A stretch of 64,000 nucleotides of DNA from Escherichia coli. GTDB lineage: Bacteria; Pseudomonadota; Gammaproteobacteria; Enterobacterales; Enterobacteriaceae. The notes beneath the pieces are model-generated. The model was given only the letters and a program-made list of their open reading frames with translations. It searched no databases and had not been told where the DNA came from. The position numbers and the translations under genes are program-made. The stretch lies in assembly GCF_003334305.1 (NCBI RefSeq), contig NZ_QOWS01000026.1; one strand, given 5' to 3'. Within the stretch, counting starts at the first letter, position 1. Each line of letters opens with the position of its first letter. Shown here in pieces: positions 8,744 to 63,827 of the stretch.

Positions 8744-8869
8744 GCCGGATGCGGCGCGAGCGCCTTATCCGGCCTACAGGTCGGCAACAGTTGTAGGCCT
8801 GATAAGACGCGACAGCGTCGCATCAGGCATTGATTGCCGGATGCGGCACGAGCGCCTTATCCGGCCTAC
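8744..8869. repeat. REP/BIME cluster (three REP units)
   Basis: gccggatgcggcgcgagcgccttatccggcctac at 8744..8777, an inverted copy at 8793..8828, and a third at 8836..8869. Confidence 0.85.
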
Positions 8870-16332: not shown

Positions 16333-17166
16333 TTAATTGCTCAAACGCTGCGGATGGGTATAAACCGTTGCCCGACCCGGTTTACAAAAACCTACCAGTG
16401 TCAGATTACAGCGCTCAGCCACTTCTACAGCAAGCGTGGTCGCGGCAGACACCGCAAACAAAATCTCTACGCCGCACATCGCCGACTTTTGCACCATTTC
16501 ATAACTGGCACGACTGGAAACCAGTACCGCACCTTGCTGCCAGCTTTCCCCTTCTTGTGACCGGCGGCCTAACAGTTTGTCCAGCGCCACATGGCGACCC
16601 ACATCTTCATGCCCGCCGACCAGTTCGCCAGATGGCAACATCCAGGCAGCGGCGTGAGTACAACCAGTCAGTTGCCCCACTGGCTGAAAATCGTTGAGAT
16701 GACGTAATGCATCATCCAGTTTGTTGAGATCAAACGTCTGGGTGAACGGTAGCGGCTGCACCGGTTTTCCGATGTCATTAAGTTGCTCCACGCCGCATAC
16801 GCCACAGCCCGTACGTCCCGCCAGCGCCCGGCGGCGCTCCTTCAACCCCATAAAGCGGCGGCTGGAAAGCTCAATTTGTACTTCAAGACCATTACAGGAA
16901 GGAACGACATCCATGCCGAAGATATCGCGCGGACTTTCTATTATCCCCTCGGAAAGCGAAAAACCGAGCGCAAAGTACTCAAGGTCTTTGGGCGACGCCA
17001 TCATCACCACATGCGAAATGCCGTTGTAGACCAGCGCAACGGGAACTTCTTCCGCGACCTCATCTAACCGTGGGTGTTGTAAATCATCACGCCGCCATAA
17101 CTCAATTTGACGAACACCTGTGATATTTGTCACATTTTCGATTTCTTTTCGCTGTGTTTTTTTCAC
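16333..17166 (-). CDS. fdhD: Formate dehydrogenase accessory sulfurtransferase
   Basis: 277 aa [31 protein letters not shown]..., recognised as FdhD. Confidence 0.95.
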
Positions 17167-17359
17167 TTTCTCTTAACCGGATAAGAACACACACACCAAC
17201 ATTATAGTATTCTGTTACAAACCCTTCCTGGATGGAGGGAAATTGAGCCAATTCTGGACCTTTGCGGCCCCTTCCGCAAAGAAAAATAACTCCCACTCCC
17301 TGCACACGCAGCAAGCGAATGTAAATGGGACGTGACAATGTCGAAACAAGGAGCAATCC

Positions 17360-20300
17360 ATGCAGGTCAGCAGAAGGCAGTTCTTTAAGATCTGCGCTGG
17401 CGGTATGGCAGGCACCACGGCAGCGGCACTGGGTTTTGCACCCAGCGTAGCGCTCGCGGAAACCCGGCAGTATAAACTGCTGCGCACCCGCGAAACCCGT
17501 AATACCTGCACCTATTGTTCCGTAGGCTGTGGGCTGTTGATGTACAGCCTCGGTGACGGAGCAAAAAACGCCAAAGCATCTATCTTCCATATCGAAGGCG
17601 ATCCGGATCACCCGGTCAACCGCGGTGCACTTTGTCCGAAAGGCGCTGGCCTGGTGGATTTCATCCACTCCGAAAGCCGTCTGAAGTTTCCGGAATACCG
17701 TGCGCCAGGTTCTGATAAATGGCAGCAAATCAGTTGGGAAGAGGCGTTTGATCGCATCGCCAAACTGATGAAAGAAGACCGCGATGCTAACTACATTGCG
17801 CAAAACGCCGAAGGCGTGACTGTTAACCGCTGGCTCTCCACCGGGATGCTGTGTGCTTCCGCGTCGAGTAACGAAACCGGCTATTTAACGCAAAAATTCT
17901 CCCGCGCGCTGGGTATGCTCGCGGTCGACAACCAGGCGCGTGTCTGACACGGACCAACGGTAGCAAGTCTTGCTCCAACATTTGGTCGCGGTGCGATGAC
18001 CAACCACTGGGTCGACATCAAGAACGCCAACCTCGTCGTGGTGATGGGCGGTAACGCCGCTGAAGCTCACCCGGTCGGGTTCCGCTGGGCGATGGAAGCC
18101 AAAATTCACAACGGCGCGAAGCTGATTGTGATCGATCCTCGCTTTACGCGTACGGCGGCGGTAGCTGACTACTATGCCCCTATTCGTTCCGGTACTGACA
18201 TTGCTTTCCTGTCAGGCGTATTGCTGTACCTGCTGAACAATGAAAAATTCAACCGCGAATACACCGAAGCCTATACCAACGCAAGCCTGATAGTGCGTGA
18301 GGATTACGGCTTTGAAGATGGCCTGTTCACCGGCTACGACGCGGAAAAACGCAAGTACGATAAATCCTCCTGGACTTATGAACTGGACGAAAACGGCTTC
18401 GCCAAACGCGATACCACGCTGCAACATCCGCGCTGCGTGTGGAACTTGCTGAAACAGCACGTTTCCCGCTACACGCCAGATGTGGTTGAAAACATCTGTG
18501 GTACGCCAAAAGACGCGTTCCTGAAAGTCTGCGAATACATCGCAGAAACCAGTGCTCACGATAAAACTGCCTCGTTCCTCTATGCCCTCGGCTGGACGCA
18601 ACACTCCGTTGGTGCGCAAAACATTCGTACGATGGCGATGATCCAGCTGCTGCTCGGCAATATGGGGATGGCCGGCGGCGGCGTTAACGCCCTGCGCGGT
18701 CACTCCAATATTCAGGGGCTGACGGACCTGGGGCTGCTGTCGCAGAGTCTGCCAGGTTACATGACGCTGCCAAGCGAGAAGCAGACCGATCTGCAAACCT
18801 ACCTTACCGCCAACACGCCAAAACCGCTGCTGGAAGGCCAGGTAAACTACTGGGGCAACTACCCGAAATTCTTCGTCTCTATGATGAAGGCCTTCTTTGG
18901 TGATAAAGCGACGGCGGAAAATAGCTGGGGCTTTGACTGGTTGCCGAAGTGGGATAAAGGCTACGACGTCCTGCAATACTTCGAGATGATGAAAGAAGGC
19001 AAGGTCAATGGCTATATCTGCCAGGGCTTTAACCCTGTTGCCTCATTCCCGAACAAAAACAAAGTGATCGGTTGTCTGTCGAAACTGAAGTTCCTCGTCA
19101 CCATCGACCCGCTGAACACTGAAACCTCTAACTTCTGGCAGAACCACGGTGAGCTGAACGAAGTTGACTCGTCGAAGATCCAGACCGAAGTGTTCCGTCT
19201 GCCATCGACCTGCTTCGCAGAAGAGAACGGTTCAATCGTTAACTCAGGTCGCTGGTTGCAGTGGCACTGGAAAGGTGCGGACGCCCCGGGGATTGCGCTG
19301 ACTGATGGCGAGATCCTCTCCGGTATCTTCCTGCGCTTGCGCAAGATGTATGCCGAACAGGGTGGCGCGAACCCGGACCAGGTGCTGAACATGACCTGGA
19401 ACTACGCCATTCCGCATGAGCCGAAGTCGGAAGAAGTAGCGATGGAGAGCAACGGTAAGGCGCTGGCCGATATTACCGATCCGGCAACCGGTGCGGTTAT
19501 CGTCAAGAAAGGCCAACAACTTAGCTCGTTCGCCCAATTGCGCGATGACGGTACAACCTCCTGTGGCTGCTGGATTTTCGCCGGTAGCTGGACGCCGGAA
19601 GGCAACCAGATGGCGCGTCGTGATAACGCCGATCCGTCTGGCCTCGGTAACACGCTGGGCTGGGCATGGGCATGGCCGCTTAACCGCCGCATTCTGTATA
19701 ACCGCGCCTCCGCAGATCCGCAGGGTAACCCGTGGGATCCGAAGCGTCAGTTGCTGAAATGGGACGGCACTAAGTGGACCGGCTGGGATATTCCGGACTA
19801 CAGCGCAGCGCCTCCGGGTAGCGGCGTCGGGCCGTTTATCATGCAGCAGGAAGGCATGGGGCGTCTGTTTGCCCTCGATAAGATGGCGGAAGGTCCGTTC
19901 CCGGAACACTACGAGCCGTTTGAAACGCCGCTGGGAACTAACCCGCTGCATCCAAACGTTATCTCGAACCCGGCTGCACGTATCTTTAAAGACGACGCCG
20001 AAGCATTGGGTAAAGCCGATAAGTTCCCGTATGTCGGAACCACCTATCGTCTGACCGAGCATTTCCACTACTGGACCAAACACGCGCTGTTGAACGCGAT
20101 TTTGCAACCAGAGCAGTTTGTGGAAATCGGGGAGTCGCTGGCGAATAAACTTGGCATTGCCCAGGGCGATACCGTGAAAGTCTCCTCCAACCGTGGCTAT
20201 ATCAAGGCCAAAGCGGTGGTGACCAAACGTATTCGTACACTGAAAGTGAACGGCAAAGATATCGATACCATCGGTATTCCGATTCACTGGGGCTATGAAG

Positions 20301-20410
20301 GCGTAGCTAAAAAAGGCTTTATTGCCAATACGTTAACGCCATTCGTTGGTGATGCGAACACGCAGACGCCGGAGTTTAAGTCCTTCCTTGTGAATGTGGA
20401 AAAGGTGTAA
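17360..20410 (+). CDS. fdoG: Formate dehydrogenase-O catalytic subunit (selenoprotein; in-frame UGA at 17945..17947 read as Sec)
   Basis: ORF track shows 17360..17947 and 17996..20410 in the same frame, split only by TGA; flanking residues ..VDNQARV-U-HGPTVASLAPTFGRG.. match the Sec site of FdoG; twin-arginine signal SRRQFFK at N-terminus. Confidence 0.95.
17945..17990 (+). other. UGA-Sec codon and putative SECIS hairpin
   Basis: In-frame TGA followed by a short hairpin (gcaag/cttgc) within the ~40 nt window where bacterial SECIS elements lie. Confidence 0.65.
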
Positions 20411-20422
20411 CGGAGACGACAT

Positions 20423-21325
20423 ATGGCTTATCAATCTCAAGATATCATTCGTCGTTCCGCGACTAACGGTCTGACCCCCGCGCCTCAGGCGCGGGACTTC
20501 CAGGAAGAAGTGGCGAAACTCATCGACGTCACCACCTGTATCGGCTGTAAAGCCTGTCAGGTGGCGTGTTCAGAGTGGAACGACATTCGCGATACCGTCG
20601 GCAATAACATTGGGGTGTACGACAACCCCAATGATTTAAGCGCCAAATCGTGGACGGTAATGCGCTTCTCGGAAGTGGAGCAGAACGACAAACTGGAATG
20701 GCTGATCCGCAAAGACGGCTGTATGCACTGTTCCGATCCAGGCTGCCTGAAAGCGTGCCCGGCGGAAGGTGCAATTATTCAGTATGCCAACGGTATCGTC
20801 GACTTCCAGTCCGAGCAGTGCATTGGCTGCGGTTATTGCATTGCGGGCTGTCCGTTCGACATTCCGCGCCTCAACCCGGAAGACAACCGCGTCTACAAAT
20901 GTACGCTGTGCGTTGACCGCGTGGTGGTTGGGCAAGAACCAGCCTGCGTGAAGACCTGCCCAACGGGCGCGATTCACTTCGGTACGAAAGAGTCGATGAA
21001 AACGCTGGCGAGCGAGCGCGTTGCTGAGCTGAAAACCCGCGGTTACGACAATGCGGGTCTGTACGATCCGGCAGGCGTCGGTGGTACACACGTCATGTAC
21101 GTGCTGCACCATGCTGACAAGCCAAATCTGTATCATGGCTTGCCGGAGAACCCGGAAATCAGCGAAACCGTGAAATTCTGGAAAGGCATCTGGAAACCGC
21201 TCGCGGCTGTTGGCTTTGCGGCTACCTTTGCGGCCAGTATCTTCCACTACGTGGGTGTCGGTCCGAACCGTGCGGATGAGGAAGAGAATAATCTGCACGA
21301 AGAGAAAGACGAGGAGCGCAAATGA
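20423..21325 (+). CDS. fdoH: Formate dehydrogenase-O iron-sulfur subunit
   Basis: 300 aa ORF with multiple CxxCxxCxxxCP ferredoxin motifs and a C-terminal TM anchor. Confidence 0.95.
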
Positions 21326-21957
21326 AACGACGTGACACCATCGTGCGCTACACCGCGCCGGAACGTATCAACCACTGGATCACCGCCTTCTGCTTCATCC
21401 TGGCGGCGGTGAGCGGGCTGGGCTTTTTGTTCCCGTCCTTCAACTGGTTGATGCAAATCATGGGCACACCGCAGCTGGCGCGAATTCTGCACCCGTTTGT
21501 CGGCGTGGTTATGTTTGCCTCGTTCATCATCATGTTTTTCCGTTACTGGCATCACAACCTAATCAATCGGGATGATATCTTTTGGGCGAAGAATATTCGT
21601 AAGATCGTCGTCAACGAGGAAGTAGGTGACACCGGGCGTTATAACTTCGGTCAGAAATGCGTTTTCTGGGCGGCGATTATTTTCCTGGTTCTGCTGCTGG
21701 TGAGCGGCGTGATTATCTGGCGTCCTTATTTTGCGCCTGCTTTCTCAATCCCGGTGATCCGATTCGCGTTAATGCTGCATTCATTTGCCGCAGTGGCGTT
21801 AATTGTGGTTATCATGGTGCATATCTACGCCGCCCTTTGGGTGAAAGGCACGATTACCGCCATGGTGGAAGGATGGGTTACCAGCGCCTGGGCGAAGAAA
21901 CATCACCCGCGCTGGTACCGTGAGGTCCGCAAGACAACGGAAAAGAAAGCTGAATGA
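21322..21957 (+). CDS. fdoI: Formate dehydrogenase-O cytochrome b556 subunit
   Basis: 211 aa polytopic membrane [26 protein letters not shown]...; ATGA overlap with fdoH. Confidence 0.95.
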
Positions 21958-22883
21958 GTATTCGCATAATCCCGCAAGATGAGCTGGGTTCAAGCGAGAA
22001 ACGTACGGCGGATATGATTCCGCCGTTATTGTTCCCTCGGCTCAAGAATTTATACAACCGCCGCGCCGAGCGTCTGCGCGAGCTGGCAGAAAATAATCCG
22101 CTGGGTGATTACCTGCGCTTTGCTGCGCTTATCGCCCACGCCCAGGAAGTGGTGCTGTACGACCATCCGCTGGAGATGGATCTGACCGCGCGCATTAAAG
22201 AAGCCAGCGCACAGGGCAAGCCCCCGCTGGATATTCACGTTCTGCCGCGTGATAAGCACTGGCAAAAGCTGCTGATGGCGCTGATTGCTGAGCTGAAACC
22301 TGAAATGAGCGGCCCGGCGCTGGCAGTGATTGAGAATCTGGAGAAGGCATCGACTCAGGAGCTGGAAGATATGGCCAGCGCACTGTTTGCCTCTGATTTC
22401 TCATCCGTCAGCAGCGATAAAGCGCCGTTTATCTGGGCTGCACTGTCGCTCTACTGGGCGCAGATGGCCAATCTGATCCCCGGCAAAGCCCGCGCTGAAT
22501 ACGGCGAGCAACGTCAATATTGCCCGGTTTGTGGTTCTATGCCGGTGTCCAGCATGGTGCAAATTGGCACCACTCAGGGTCTGCGTTACCTGCACTGCAA
22601 CCTGTGTGAAACCGAATGGCACGTAGTGCGCGTAAAATGCAGCAACTGCGAGCAGAGCGGCAAACTGCATTACTGGTCGCTGGATGACGAACAGGCCGCG
22701 ATTAAAGCCGAAAGCTGCGATGACTGTGGCACTTACCTGAAGATTCTTTATCAGGAAAAAGAACCGAAAGTTGAAGCCGTGGCAGATGACCTCGCTTCTC
22801 TGGTACTGGACGCGCGAATGGAGCAAGAAGGCTATGCCCGCAGTTCCATCAACCCGTTCCTGTTTCCGGGTGAAGGGGAGTAA
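21954..22883 (+). CDS. fdhE: Formate dehydrogenase formation protein FdhE
   Basis: 309 aa ORF with paired CxxC motifs; ATGA overlap with fdoI. Confidence 0.95.
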
Positions 22884-23127
22884 TCTCTGACGTTTTCCGG
22901 GTGGCGCTGGTCGCCCGGATTACAGCTCATAGGGTGTGACGACACCATCTCTCGTATTCCGCGTTACCCATTCAAGATCATGCCGCAATTGTCTGTTTGC
23001 CTCGTTCTTCCCTCCAACACATCGATAAGGTTATGGGTATGTCACTGATGACAAGCGTATGATTGCCTGATGCGCTGCGCTTATCAGCCCTACCAATAAA
23101 CTTCAATATATTGAATTTGCATGACTT

Positions 23128-23161
23128 TGTAGGCCGGATAAGGCGTTCACGCCGCATCCGG
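23128..23161. repeat. REP element
   Basis: gtaggccggataaggcgttcacgccgcatccggc, between convergent fdhE and yiiF. Confidence 0.75.
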
Positions 23162-23212
23162 CATGAACAACGCGCACGTTGTCAGCAATCTGATTGACAT
23201 CATTTTTTCCCA

Positions 23213-44291: not shown

Positions 44292-44455
44292 TGTTTAATC
44301 CTTTTGGTTTAAACCAGATGAAGCATCTTACGCTTACGCCAAAAAAGAAAGCAATTAACGGCGTATGACTTTGCAGATAATTGTGACAAAGCTCTCTATT
44401 GACGTAATCCCAGACTTATAAGGGAGATACTCGCATTGGTGTGCGCTCACGACAG

Positions 44456-44492
44456 GTAAAAAAAAACCTGCCAGCGATGGCAGGTTTTTTAT
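44456..44492 (-). terminator. typA (bipA) rho-independent terminator
   Basis: Stem cctgccagcgatggcagg flanked by A- and T-runs, 16 bp downstream of typA stop. Confidence 0.7.
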
Positions 44493-44507
44493 AACTAAAA
44501 AACGAAA

Positions 44508-46331
44508 TTAATCGTCTTTCGGTGCGCGGTTGGCGCGGCGACGATCGTTTTCCGTCAGGTGACGTTTACGAATACGGATAGAGGTCGGAGTCACTTCTAC
44601 TAGTTCGTCATCATCGATGAACTCCAGAGCTTGTTCCAGAGTCATGCGGATAGGCGGAACCAGAACAACGGCTTCGTCAGTACCGGAAGCACGCATGTTG
44701 GTCAGTTTCTTACCGGTCAGGCAGTTTACCGTCAGGTCGTTAGAGCGGCTATGAATACCGATAATCTGACCTTCGTAAACTTCTGCACCGTGACCGAGGA
44801 ACAGCTTACCGCGATCCTGCAGACCGAACAGCGCGAACGCGACCGCTTTACCCTGACCGTTAGAGATCAGTACGCCGTTCTGACGCTGACCCACTTCACC
44901 CGGACGTACGTCGTCGTAGTGGCTGAAGGTGGAGTACAGCAGACCAGTACCGGAAGTCATGGTCATGAACTCAGAACGGAAGCCAATCAGACCACGGCTT
45001 GGGATCACGTAGTCGAGACGTACGCGGCCTTTACCGTCTGGATTCATGTTTTTCAGGTCGCCTTTACGTTCGCCCAGCGCCTGCATTACAGAACCCTGAT
45101 GCTGTTCTTCAACGTCCAGAGTCACGTTTTCATATGGCTCTTGTTTACGACCGTCGATTTCACGGAAGATAACTTTCGGACGGGATACCGCCAGTTCGAA
45201 ACCTTCACGACGCATGTTTTCGATCAGAACAGACAGGTGTAGTTCGCCACGACCAGAAACGCGGAACGCATCAGCGTCTTCGGTTTCTTCTACGCGCAGC
45301 GCAACGTTGTGTACCAGTTCTTTGTTCAGACGATCCAGGATCTGACGAGACGTTACGAACTTACCTTCTTTACCGCAGAACGGCGAGGTGTTAACGCAGA
45401 AGAACATAGAAACGGTCGGCTCATCAACGGAGAGTGCCGGCAGCGCTTCAACGTTTTGCGTGTCGCAAACGGTGTCAGAAATGTTCAGTTCGCCAAGGCC
45501 CGTGATCGCAACGATATCGCCAGCTTCCGCCAGGTCGGTTTCGATACGTTCCAGACCGAGGTGGCCCAGCACTTTACCGACTTTCGCGTTGCGGGTTTTG
45601 CCTTCGCTATCGATGATAGTGACCTGCTGGTTCGGCTTCACTTTACCGCGCTTGATGCGGCCAATGCCGATAACGCCAACATAGCTGTTGTAATCGAGCT
45701 GAGAAATCTGCATCTGGAACGGACCGTCAAGGTCAACGTCCGGCGCAGGAACGTGGTCAACAATCGCCTGGTACAGCGGGGTCATGTCTTCCGCCATATC
45801 TTCGTGGTCCAGACCCGCGATACCGTTCAGCGCAGAAGCGTAAACGATCGGGAAGTCCAACTGCTCGTCGGTCGCGTCGAGGTTAACGAACAGATCGAAT
45901 ACCTGATCCACAACCCAATCAGGACGCGCGCCAGGGCGGTCAACTTTGTTGATAACAACAATCGGCTTCAGGCCGTAAGCAAACGCTTTTTTGGTTACGA
46001 AGCGCGTTTGCGGCATCGGGCCGTCAAATGCGTCAACCACCAGCAGCACTGAGTCTACCATGGACATTACACGTTCAACTTCACCACCGAAGTCGGCGTG
46101 CCCCGGGGTATCAACGATGTTGATACGGTAATCATTCCATTTGATAGCGGTGTTTTTCGCGAGGATGGTAATCCCACGCTCTTTCTCCAAATCGTTGGAG
46201 TCCATCACGCGCTCTTGGGTTTCGGCACGAGAGTCGAACGTACCGGATTGTTGGAGCAGCTTGTCTACCAGGGTGGTTTTACCATGGTCTACGTGCGCGA
46301 TGATGGCGATATTACGCAATTTTTCGATCAC
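44508..46331 (-). CDS. typA: Ribosome-associated translational GTPase BipA/TypA
   Basis: 607 aa ORF (M)[25 protein letters not shown]...; first codon is GTG at 46331. Confidence 0.96.
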
Positions 46332-46482
46332 AACTTTGCCTCAGGCATTAGAAATAGCGCGTTATTGTACACGGATTAATCGCACTACAAAACAGGATCA
46401 CAAACATCCTCCGCAAACAAGTATTGCAGAGTCCCTTTGTGATCGCTTTCACGGAGCATAAAAAGGGTTATCCAAAGGTCAT

Positions 46483-46573
46483 TGCACCAACATGGTGCTT
46501 AATGTTTCCATTGAAGCACTATATTGGTGCAACATTCACATCGTGGTGCAGCCCTTTTGCACGATGGTGCGCA
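46483..46573. promoter_or_regulatory. NtrC enhancer-like sites upstream of glnA
   Basis: Repeated TGCACCA/TGGTGCA dyads: tgcaccaacatggtgc (46483..46498), gcactatattggtgca (46516..46531), tggtgcagcccttttgcacgatggtgcgca (46544..46573). Confidence 0.6.
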
Positions 46574-51124: not shown

Positions 51125-51158
51125 GTTTCAGATTGCTGATGAAGTGCTCTTTGTTCAT

Positions 51159-51246
51159 GCCGGATGCGGCGTGAACGCCTTATCCGGCCTACAAAAGCAA
51201 TATTTTCAACAGGTTTTGTAGGCCTGATAAGCGTAGCGCATCAGGC
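51159..51246. repeat. REP/BIME (two inverted REP units)
   Basis: gccggatgcggcgtgaacgccttatccggcctac and gtaggcctgataagcgtagcgcatcaggc. Confidence 0.85.
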
Positions 51247-51313
51247 AATCTTGTTCTCAGCACATTGATGGCGCTTTCGTTTTCTACTTTGTAAACGAAG
51301 CGCCATTCACTAT

Positions 51314-53385: not shown

Positions 53386-53451
53386 AATGGTTCGTCTTTT
53401 AGCCGTTTTATTCAGTATAGATTTGCGGCGGAATCTAACAGAAAGCAAGCA

Positions 53452-53696
53452 AAGAAAAAAGGCGACAGATTACTCTGTCGCCTTTTTTCCTGACTCATAA
53501 CCCTTAACGGGTCTTACAATCCTTGCAGGCCGCCAACACACCCTGTTTTTCCTTTAGCCGGAACAATCCGTGTTGATTCCATTTCCGTTTAATTACGTCT
53601 CCGGACGTTTGTCTTCCTGACAATCCTCTGTCTTCGCCTCCTGGCGCTCCTGACCCTCATCCTGAGTCATTGTTCCTGTTAGCGTCCTCGCTCTAT
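53452..53696 (-). ncRNA. csrC: CsrC small RNA (CsrA-sequestering)
   Basis: Minus-strand region dense in GGA/AGGA motifs ending in the hairpin ggcgacagagtaatctgtcgcc plus U-tract, 67 bp upstream of yihI; ends are approximate. Confidence 0.75.
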
Positions 53697-62733: not shown

Positions 62734-63318
62734 GTGAATCTGATGACGACGATAACAGGCGTTGTGCTGGCAGGCGGTAAAGCCAGACGAATGGGCGGCG
62801 TAGATAAAGGATTGCTTGAATTAAACGGCAAACCATTATGGCAACATGTCGCTGACGCGCTTATGACGCAGCTCTCTCACGTCGTGGTTAATGCCAATCG
62901 CCATCAGGAAATCTATCAGGCAAGCGGTCTGAAAGTGATTGAAGATTCACTGGCGGATTACCCAGGCCCTCTGGCAGGAATGCTTTCAGTAATGCAGCAG
63001 GAAGCAGGCGAGTGGTTTTTGTTTTGTCCGTGCGATACTCCTTATATTCCCGAGGATTTAGCAGCCCGGCTTAATCATCAGCGCAAAGATGCGCCTGTCG
63101 TGTGGGTCCACGACGGTGAACGCGATCACCCGACTATTGCTCTGGTAAACCGCGCAATTGAGCCTTTATTACTGGAATATCTGCAAGCAGGAGAACGCCG
63201 GGTAATGGCATTTATGCGTCTGGCTGGCGGTCATGCGGTTGATTTCAGCGATAATAAAGATGCATTTATTAACGTGAATACGCCAGAGGAGCTTGCCCGA
63301 TGGCAGGAAAAACGATGA
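62734..63318 (+). CDS. mobA: Molybdenum cofactor guanylyltransferase
   Basis: 194 aa ORF (M)[27 protein letters not shown]...; first codon is GTG with AGAGG SD. Confidence 0.93.
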
Positions 63319-63827
63319 TACCGTTACTCGCCTTTGCCGCGTGGAGTGGTACCGGAAAAACTACGCTTTTGAAACAACTGATCCCGGCATTATGCGCCAG
63401 AGGGATCCGTCCAGGGCTGATTAAGCATACGCACCATGATATGGATGTTGATAAGCCAGGCAAAGATAGCTATGAGCTGCGCAAGGCTGGCGCGGCACAA
63501 ACCATCGTTGCCAGCCAGCAACGATGGGCCTTGATGACGGAAACACCAGACGAAGAAGAGCTGGATCTACAGTTTCTCGCAAGTCGAATGGATACCTCAA
63601 AGCTGGATTTGATTCTGGTCGAAGGGTTTAAGCATGAAGAGATCGCAAAGATTGTGCTGTTTCGCGATGGAGCCGGACATCGACCTGAAGAATTAGTGAT
63701 AGACAGGCATGTTATTGCTGTAGCCAGTGATGTGCCGCTTAATCTTGATGTCGCATTACTGGATATTAATGATGTTGAGGGGCTGGCTGATTTTGTGGTG
63801 GAGTGGATGCAAAAGCAGAACGGATAA
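63300..63827 (+). CDS. mobB: Molybdopterin-guanine dinucleotide biosynthesis adapter protein
   Basis: 175 aa ORF with P-loop GTGKTT; overlaps mobA end. Confidence 0.92.

Follow-up and report, generated by a model that had tools for sequence, protein, structure and literature searches.

An in-frame UGA codon followed by a SECIS element in fdoG of Escherichia coli, and its probable reading as selenocysteine

The stretch of DNA analysed here, called the window below, comprises 64,000 nt from Escherichia coli. The locus of interest encodes formate dehydrogenase-O (FDH-O) and is made of the following genes.

16333..17166, - strand: fdhD, sulfurtransferase/chaperone for FDH maturation, divergent from fdoG (ORF list; RefSeq)
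17360..20410, + strand: fdoG, catalytic (alpha) subunit of formate dehydrogenase-O, a single CDS of 1016 codons, with selenocysteine (Sec) almost certainly encoded at codon 196
20423..21325, + strand: fdoH, beta Fe-S subunit (TIGR01582, 478.7 bits; RefSeq)
21322..21957, + strand: fdoI, gamma cytochrome b556 subunit (453.3 bits with the FdoI-specific model NF007924 and 243.6 with the FdnI one; RefSeq)
21954..22883, + strand: fdhE, FDH accessory protein (profile match; RefSeq)

The succession fdoG-fdoH-fdoI-fdhE, with fdhD divergent, is the arrangement of the FDH-O operon. A match upstream of fdoG to the FdoG-1 5′-UTR thermometer (RF02778) reached 34.7 bits, below the threshold of 50, and such an element is not claimed; folding of this 5′-UTR gave z = -0.99, with the Shine-Dalgarno GGAG engaged only in a weak 3-bp stem. 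Separately, a 135-nt repeat pair was seen to carry REP/BIME-type palindromes. Its identification as ERIC was rejected, the ERIC2 primer motif remaining unmatched at up to 3 mismatches.

In the list of open reading frames, fdoG is present as two ORFs of the + strand, both starting from an ATG, at 17360..17947 (195 aa) and 17996..20410 (804 aa). Their starts are 636 nt apart, or 3 × 212, and the two ORFs therefore share one frame, as the preliminary description of this DNA had reported when it placed the split at a TGA. Translated in this single frame, 17360..20410 gives 1016 sense codons, a sole internal stop and a terminal TAA. The internal stop is the following codon.

17945..17947, + strand: UGA codon 196, most probably recoded as selenocysteine, the predicted Mo ligand (aligned to known Sec codons)

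This TGA aligns with those of K-12 fdoG (codon 196), fdnG (codon 196) and fdhF (codon 140). The alignment to the FdnG and FdhF Sec sites that had been suggested as a check thus gave the expected result, and the junction between the two ORFs does correspond, as had been rightly proposed from sequence alone, to the known Sec position of formate dehydrogenase-O. We conclude that codon 196 is, with very little doubt, decoded as Sec and does not terminate translation; no evidence contradicting this explanation was found.

The closest reference for the gene is K-12 fdoG (b3894), which has the same length of 3,051 nt, the TGA at the same codon, 60 identical nucleotides from the UGA onwards, and the same operon and neighbours. 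The two genes differ by 29 nt and 2 aa (1014 of 1016 residues identical): K689 in the window is S in K-12, and V963 is A, neither of them falling in the Sec/SECIS region. FdnG, in contrast, is 77.1% identical at the amino acid level, and is the product of a paralogous gene lying in the FDH-N operon, whereas the window locus is an FDH-O operon. From these comparisons, the window gene is the ortholog of K-12 FdoG, and not of FdnG. In strain A7, RefSeq nevertheless names it ‘fdnG’, as one CDS of 3,051 nt running across the TGA, and K-12 fdoG is likewise annotated as a single CDS. The preliminary description had warned that a naive annotation would produce a pseudogene here; the current RefSeq/PGAP annotation does not, and reads through the TGA.

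Could the TGA be an artefact of sequencing or assembly, or a genuine nonsense mutation that has turned fdoG into a pseudogene? We give the artefact no credit, as an independent complete genome, that of E. coli strain A7, is 100% identical to the window over its 64,000 nt, and the TGA segment is found exactly in thousands of assemblies. A pseudogene would account for the fact that mechanical ORF calling cuts fdoG in two, but it does not account for the conservation of the stop codon. The 83-nt segment comprising the TGA and the SECIS occurs in every one of the 5,426 complete genomes of E. coli, with an exact match in 5,321 records, and the same TGA is shared by 104 loci of the FdnG/FdoG type that belong to many phyla and keep long open frames on either side. 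In the window itself, the 820 codons past the TGA stay open and fit the family profile end to end, and a curated SECIS directly follows the TGA. The pseudogene reading is effectively refuted.

Continuity of the protein across the TGA was observed at the level of its domains, of which the relevant ones are listed here.

17369..17389, + strand: Tat motif S-R-R-Q-F-F-K, residues 4-10, recognised by eye from the translation
17489..17668, + strand: [4Fe-4S] cluster domain (Pfam Molybdop_Fe4S4), residues 44-103, E = 5.4e-16
17678..19126, + strand: molybdopterin oxidoreductase domain (Pfam PF00384), residues 107-589, straddling the TGA, E = 6.1e-28

The in-frame ATG at 17996 leaves room for a different interpretation, with two genes instead of one: a gene for a 195-aa Fe-S protein that the TGA terminates, followed by one for an 804-aa protein initiated at this ATG. 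The domains argue strongly against it: PF00384 starts within the 195-aa piece and finishes within the 804-aa piece, and the single NCBIfam profile TIGR01553 is covered contiguously, by positions 1-194 before the TGA and 196-1009 after it, so that exactly one position is skipped. The C-terminal part alone scores 1280.6 bits with this profile, for a cut-off of 814.2. Moreover, the protein sequence of the 16 codons separating the TGA from the ATG (HGPTVASLAPTFGRGA) is conserved and can be aligned to FdnG and FdhF, the ATG itself corresponds to the conserved internal Met213, and FdnG in its solved structure is a single chain. Two separate genes are therefore most improbable.

Read as one protein, FdoG shows the order of Pfam domains expected for the family (Fe4S4, molybdopterin, MGD-binding). 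When its translation, with X written at position 196, was used as query against the PDB, the top match was the selenoprotein FdnG (1kqf_A), aligned over the full length with 1905 bits; none of the matched chains was named FdoG. This structure, 1KQF, is that of formate dehydrogenase-N, an enzyme with the same domain order as FdoG but paralogous to it. The SRRQFFK sequence probably acts as a twin-arginine signal motif, by analogy with what is established for FdnG and FdoG, which both face the periplasm (PMC6239281).

The RNA features found around the UGA are the following.

17942..18000, + strand: SECIS element, full match to Rfam SECIS_3 (RF01989), 84.3 bits, model positions 1-59 of 59
17948..17990, + strand: SECIS hairpin, lower and upper helix (Rfam structure line and ViennaRNA MFE)
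17959..17976, + strand: apical mini-helix GGUAGCAAGUCUUGCUCC, the probable SelB-binding part, with bulged U17 at 17961 and loop bases G23 at 17967 and U24 at 17968
17991..18010, + strand: 3′ tail past the hairpin, an unexplained extension in which synonymous sites are constrained in Enterobacterales

The score of the SECIS_3 match is well above the gathering score of 63 (E = 8e-20 in a local scan, 1.4e-18 in a scan of the whole window). Its paired part has exactly the coordinates 17948..17990, for which the preliminary description had advised a structure prediction, and ViennaRNA folds the same region. Membership of SECIS_2, the fdhF type (RF01988), was rejected, the score being 28.1 bits for a threshold of 70. 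The stability of the hairpin did not distinguish it from background: its MFE of -14.6 kcal/mol corresponds to z = -0.76, and 41 of 200 shuffled sequences fold as well. Stability above background is not a defining trait of the SECIS family, but as stability by itself was no better than chance, thermodynamics was dropped as support. Given this unremarkable energy, the evidence consists of the covariance-model score, the covariation across species and the conservation of synonymous sites. Hence, of the short hairpin announced earlier after the UGA, the existence is upheld by the SECIS_3 match, the fold and the covariation, with a support that is comparative and not energetic.

Covariation was analysed on 69 distinct cross-species sequences, collected with a search pattern anchored on the coding context only; 6 chance matches to this pattern had neither a long ORF nor such a hairpin. 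In the 69 sequences, the apical helix is paired at 97.7%, and both sides have changed in 4 of its 7 pairs. The covariation score was reached by none of 500 shuffles, with a statistic that carries no phylogenetic correction. Two of the pairs, 17962/17974 and 17965/17971, involve third-codon positions under an invariant Val and an invariant Leu. The lower helix (17948-17957 with 17982-17990) behaves differently: it is paired at 84.4% across species, with zero compensatory changes. Its Rfam consensus register was set aside for the window, as it leaves the mismatches A.C (17949/17989) and A.G (17953/17985); the window's lower helix pairs best after a shift of one nucleotide, in the register given by ViennaRNA, with G17988 bulged. 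Because compensatory changes are absent there, we claim no defined structure for the lower helix, and consider only the apical helix as structurally well supported.

The apical helix also presents the bases expected for recognition. U17 and U24 are invariant in 69 of 69 sequences and G23 is kept in 67, and all three lie at the same offsets from the UGA as in K-12 fdhF. In work from the Boeck laboratory, U17 and G23/U24 were reportedly defined as the SelB contact bases of fdhF. The fdhF SECIS, the archetypal bacterial one (RF01988), resembles that of the window in several respects, namely a hairpin placed immediately after the UGA, the bulged U at +17, G and U at +23 and +24 counted from the U of UGA, a mini-helix with a GG/CC base, and ARV-U-HGP as flanking peptide. 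It differs in the apical stem, which has 4 bp and a GGUC loop in fdhF, compared to 5 bp and a GUC loop in the window (or 4 bp and AGUCU), and in the sequence of the lower stem. As to the proteins, FdhF is cytoplasmic, has 715 aa and is 33.5% identical to FdoG.

Near-cognate read-through of UGA occurs at a low level in E. coli, and one may ask whether codon 196 is read mainly in this way, by a Trp or Cys tRNA, rather than by SelB and Sec-tRNA(Sec). This has hardly any probability in our opinion. The SECIS is conserved and has its SelB-contact bases in the canonical places, and the sel machinery is complete: selAB and selD are found in 5426 of 5426 complete E. coli genomes and selC in 5425 of 5426, with the tRNA-Sec annotated in strain A7 at 4741380..4741474. 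The two findings foreseen as fatal to the Sec reading, segments in different frames and a genome devoid of sel genes, were thus not encountered, the segments being in one frame and selA, selB, selC and selD being present. Furthermore, the bis-MGD cofactor is described as coordinated with a selenocysteine ligand in all three E. coli FDHs (PMC6239281), for formate oxidation with Sec-Mo ligation in literature that concerns K-12.

Conservation at the nucleotide level extends beyond the hairpin. Overall, fdoG and fdnG have 74.8% nucleotide identity, and their longest identical run is 71 nt, at 17942..18012, so that the K-12 fdnG SECIS, itself an RF01989 element, is the same as that of the window over these 71 nt, which include the full-length match to the model. 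This block does not vary across Providencia, Photorhabdus and Yersinia, in which the third positions on either side of it show 31-46% identity, the flanks being saturated. In Enterobacterales, synonymous sites are nearly frozen from codon 195 to 217 (17942..18010). The frozen stretch overshoots the hairpin's 3′ end by about 20 nt, and conservation drops sharply at codon 218. It is tempting to think that in Enterobacterales the recoding element of fdoG/fdnG is larger than the canonical SECIS hairpin, a proposal that we regard as rather unlikely. The long block could come from an extended lower helix enclosing the UGA, with GUC (17942-44) facing GAC (17998-18000), from an extra contact with the ribosome or SelB, or from the SECIS RNA having a second function, in regulation. 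A more mundane alternative is the use of preferred codons (GGT, GCG, ACC, AAC, CAC) combined with gene conversion between the paralogs. The GUC/GAC helix is 96-100% pairable, with changes that are wobble only. For a further outer helix, CCAG/CUGG (17932-35/18007-10), the pair 17935/18007 is found as GC 59, GU 17, AC 15 and AU 11 times, which is hardly above independence. In view of these wobble-only changes and near-independence, extended outer helices are not established as the explanation of the block.

Taken with the SelB/SECIS mechanism described in PMC8124441, and following the E. coli K-12 paradigm, expression of fdoG would proceed as follows. The mRNA just 3′ of the UGA would fold into the SECIS hairpin (17948..17990), whose apical mini-helix (17959..17976) would expose the bulged U at +17 and the G and U at +23 and +24. 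SelB, the specialised elongation factor, would bind this mini-helix through its C-terminal domain while carrying Sec-tRNA(Sec), the selC product, made by SelA with selenophosphate supplied by SelD. With the UGA in the A site, the tethered SelB would compete with RF2 to deliver Sec-tRNA(Sec). Sec196 would then become a ligand of the molybdenum in the bis-MGD cofactor, and the folded FdoG would be exported by Tat and join FdoH and FdoI in the respiratory formate dehydrogenase-O. For FdoG, these steps, from the binding of SelB and the insertion of Sec to the ligation of Mo and the export by Tat, are in this way deduced from established knowledge.

Sec196 of FdoG and its SECIS belong to established E. 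coli biology, already handled by RefSeq annotation and by Rfam, and they bring no biological novelty. The element offers all the same a clean case of covariation in a SECIS apical stem at synonymous codon positions, which now and then drives paired amino-acid changes, and the synonymous constraint reaching past the hairpin in Enterobacterales is a mildly informative by-product. For genome scanning, fdoG is useful as a positive control, in which an in-frame UGA splitting a molybdoenzyme gene points to Sec recoding, and not to a pseudogene.

The mechanical ORF list holds two entries for fdoG, 17360..17947 (+, 195 aa) and 17996..20410 (+, 804 aa), which begin 636 nt (3 x 212) from each other and therefore share a common frame. 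One-frame translation of 17360..20410 gave 1016 sense codons, a sole interruption, TGA 17945..17947 (codon 196), and a terminal TAA, so that the same-frame split proposed in the preliminary description is real, at the coordinates given there. The window was found to be identical (100.000% over 64,000 nt, ungapped) to the reverse complement of NZ_CP028767.1:119808-183807, the chromosome of E. coli strain A7 (record position = 183808 - p, p being the window position), which opened the rest of the genome to inspection.

Codon-level comparison placed the window TGA at the in-frame TGA of K-12 fdoG (codon 196), fdnG (196) and fdhF (140), with the peptide context ARV-U-HGP common to all four. This is the known selenocysteine (Sec) position, as had been claimed; that the TGA is a sequencing error is contradicted. 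Between the read-through product and K-12 FdoG (b3894), 2 of 1016 residues differ (29 nt in the genes); identity is 77.1% with K-12 FdnG and 33.5% with FdhF. On the 1009 positions of NCBIfam model TIGR01553, the upstream piece covers 1-194 and the downstream piece 196-1009, contiguously, precisely the Sec column being skipped. The reading of the 195-aa and 804-aa ORFs as two separate genes, which the ORF list would suggest, is contradicted. The protein features are:

FdoG N-terminus, twin-arginine motif SRRQFFK, seen in the translation
residues 44-103, Pfam Fe4S4 domain, preceding the Molybdopterin oxidoreductase domain
residues 107-589, Pfam Molybdopterin oxidoreductase domain, crossing codon 196
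residues 894-1009, Pfam MGD-binding domain, after the Molybdopterin oxidoreductase domain

In a PDB search the closest solved structure was the selenoprotein FdnG (1kqf_A), aligned over its full length at 1905 bits; next came Desulfovibrio-type 'selenocysteine-containing' FDH alpha subunits.

The hairpin announced 3' of the UGA was recovered as well. Rfam SECIS_3 (RF01989) matched 17942..18000 over the whole model length, at 84.3 bits where the gathering score is 63 (E = 8e-20 in a local scan of 17000..20600, 1.4e-18 in a whole-window scan), and its paired part, 17948..17990, is exactly the stretch first proposed. The fdhF-type SECIS_2 subfamily was rejected for this hairpin (just 28.1 bits, the threshold being 70). 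Counted from the U of UGA, a bulged U stands at +17 (17961), G at +23 (17967) and U at +24 (17968), the same bases at equal offsets as in K-12 fdhF; in the Boeck-laboratory work on the fdhF and fdnG hairpins these are the SelB-contacted bases. With ViennaRNA the expected hairpin forms at -14.6 kcal/mol, no better than shuffled sequence (z = -0.76), which means that stability alone is no evidence.

Support for the hairpin comes from comparative data. Paralogs fdoG and fdnG share 74.8% nt identity, and identical codons at only 60% of identical amino acids; their longest identical run, 71 nt (17942..18012), lies directly over the SECIS. Loci were then collected from one genome per species with the pattern GCN CGN GTN TGA CAY GGN CC, which is limited to coding context, so that the RNA downstream of the TGA was not pre-selected. 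Among the 120 matching loci, 104 were FdnG/FdoG-type, with a long open frame to either side of the TGA, 10 were fdhF-type and 6 chance matches in short ORFs, none of these 6 showing a similar hairpin. The window 59-mer was unchanged in 17 loci (Providencia, Photorhabdus, Yersinia, Klebsiella, Citrobacter, Enterobacter, Superficieibacter, E. albertii), in the most distant of which flanking third-codon positions agree with the window at just 31-46%.

Pairs were counted in A1, where 69 distinct sequences are aligned without gaps. Pairing reaches 97.7% in the apical helix (17959-17966 with 17970-17976), and both partners have changed in 4 of the 7 pairs there. For the whole 16-pair structure the covariation score was 0.221, versus 0.121 +/- 0.006 after shuffling (reached by 0 of 500 shuffles), and pairing dropped from 90% to 27-50% when the 3' partners were slid. 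The pairs that vary most are 17962/17974 (GC 52, AU 9, CG 4) and 17965/17971 (AU 42, CG 22, GC 3); both link third-codon positions, and the Val and Leu encoded there are invariant, so that protein constraint cannot account for their covariation. Passage of UGA196 by near-cognate read-through is contradicted. The lower helix (17948-17957 with 17982-17990) is far weaker than the apical one, being 84.4% paired with zero compensatory changes, and a one-nt shift of register gives its best pairing in the window. In 8 of 8 distinct sequences Ala202 to Ser (GCN to TCN) comes with Ala205 to Gly (GCN to GGN), all eight keeping a U.G pair at 17963/17973 (A1 columns 22 and 32); RNA structure thus appears to drive paired amino-acid substitutions beside the active-site Sec.

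Third-codon identity to the window was measured in 12 divergent enterobacterial loci. It was 0.08-0.75 at codons 181-194 (single-codon Met186 excepted), 0.83-1.00 at codons 195-217 (17942..18010), and fell abruptly to 0.08 at codon 218, so that in Enterobacterales the constrained block passes the hairpin 3' end (17990) by about 20 nt (17991..18010). A 71-nt block, 17942..18012, is identical in the two paralogs and across distant genera. In a consensus fold GUC/GAC (17942-44/17998-18000) may act as closing pairs, though no compensatory changes support them, and an outer CCAG/CUGG helix is weakly supported. Tail positions vary outside Enterobacterales (0.36-0.66) and include just five free synonymous sites, every one a preferred codon; codon bias together with gene conversion between the paralogs may therefore be enough, and a genuine recoding element extended past the SECIS hairpin seems improbable.

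The Sec machinery is in place. Among 5,426 complete E. coli genomes, selA-selB and selD turned up in every one (5426) and selC in all but one (5425), which gave no match by megablast; tRNA-Sec is annotated in A7 at 4741380..4741474. Absence of sel genes, which would have spoken against recoding, is thus not the case. No tRNA gene was found within the 64,000-nt window, as expected since the sel genes have other chromosomal locations. Each of the 5,426 genomes has the 83-nt TGA+SECIS segment (exact in 5,321 records); the best place per record may be either fdoG or its paralog fdnG. That fdoG is a nonsense pseudogene is contradicted.

Several independent results oppose each of the four rival readings, and textbook Sec recoding of UGA196 is the best supported one: the initial observation holds and its interpretation gains support. 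Sequence features, covariation and presence of the machinery come directly from this analysis. From the K-12 literature, SelB-GTP-Sec-tRNA(Sec) would dock on the apical SECIS mini-helix, UGA196 would be decoded as selenocysteine in competition with RF2, and Sec196 would be the residue that ligates the molybdenum of bis-MGD; binding by SelB, insertion of Sec, ligation of Mo and export by Tat would all proceed as described there. The SelB/SECIS mechanism is summarised in PMC8124441, and PMC6239281 states for FdhF, FdoGHI and FdnGHI alike that selenocysteine is a ligand in the coordination of bis-MGD.

Other features of the window were recorded. mobA and mobB (62734..63827, +; coordinates transferred from the annotation of A7), some 42 kb away from fdoG, encode molybdenum cofactor guanylyltransferase and its partner, which make the MGD cofactor form needed by FdoG. 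A sub-threshold match to Rfam RF02778, 'FdoG-1 5' UTR thermometer' (17153..17389, +; 34.7 bits, gathering score 50, E = 3.9e-06), extends over the fdhD-fdoG intergenic region and the fdoG start; folding of 17290..17395 gave an unremarkable result (z = -0.99), the Shine-Dalgarno not being clearly sequestered. Two segments of ~135 nt, 23061..23193 and 51128..51250, form an inverted pair (83% identical); the former lies downstream of fdhE and carries REP/BIME-type palindromes (GCCGGATAAGGCG...CGCATCCGGCA), and no ERIC2 motif was found in it. Further Rfam matches above gathering score are:

8796..8866, -, naRNA4/CssrE, rhaA-rhaD intergenic
44455..44523, -, STnc370, at the typA 3' end
46413..46520, -, ES222, upstream of typA
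53443..53696, -, CsrC sRNA, 278.7 bits
54725..54843, -, Spot 42, adjoining polA

Probably an artefact of annotation, an A7 RefSeq pseudogene, 'hypothetical protein; frameshifted; internal stop' (record 130138-130304, window 53504..53670), lies wholly within CsrC.

The neighbours of fdoG are:

16333..17166, fdhD, divergent from fdoG
20423..21325, fdoH
21322..21957, fdoI, gamma subunit
21954..22883, fdhE

The gamma subunit scored 453 bits with the FdoI-specific NCBIfam model versus 244 with that of FdnI. In the E. coli collection copy number is usually 2 (fdoG and fdnG), with 1 or 3 in some genomes; the fdoG query gave 7 places on plasmids, and best identity was just 60-80% in 9 records. In A7 and other listed E. 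coli genomes, PGAP labels the ortholog 'fdnG: formate dehydrogenase-N subunit alpha', because TIGR01553 is common to both. The naming is imprecise, the gene being the fdoG ortholog beside genes annotated fdoH and fdoI. A pseudogene call had been expected from naive annotation; RefSeq carries a single 3,051-nt CDS spanning the TGA in both A7 and K-12, and the PGAP label is a matter of naming. The recoding of fdoG is not new, and reference genomes annotate it correctly. The mis-annotation feared at first does happen outside well-curated genomes, as in mycobacterial annotations, where a homologous FDH gene is split at the UGA into 'fdhA' and 'fdoG' (bioRxiv 10.64898/2026.03.03.709296).
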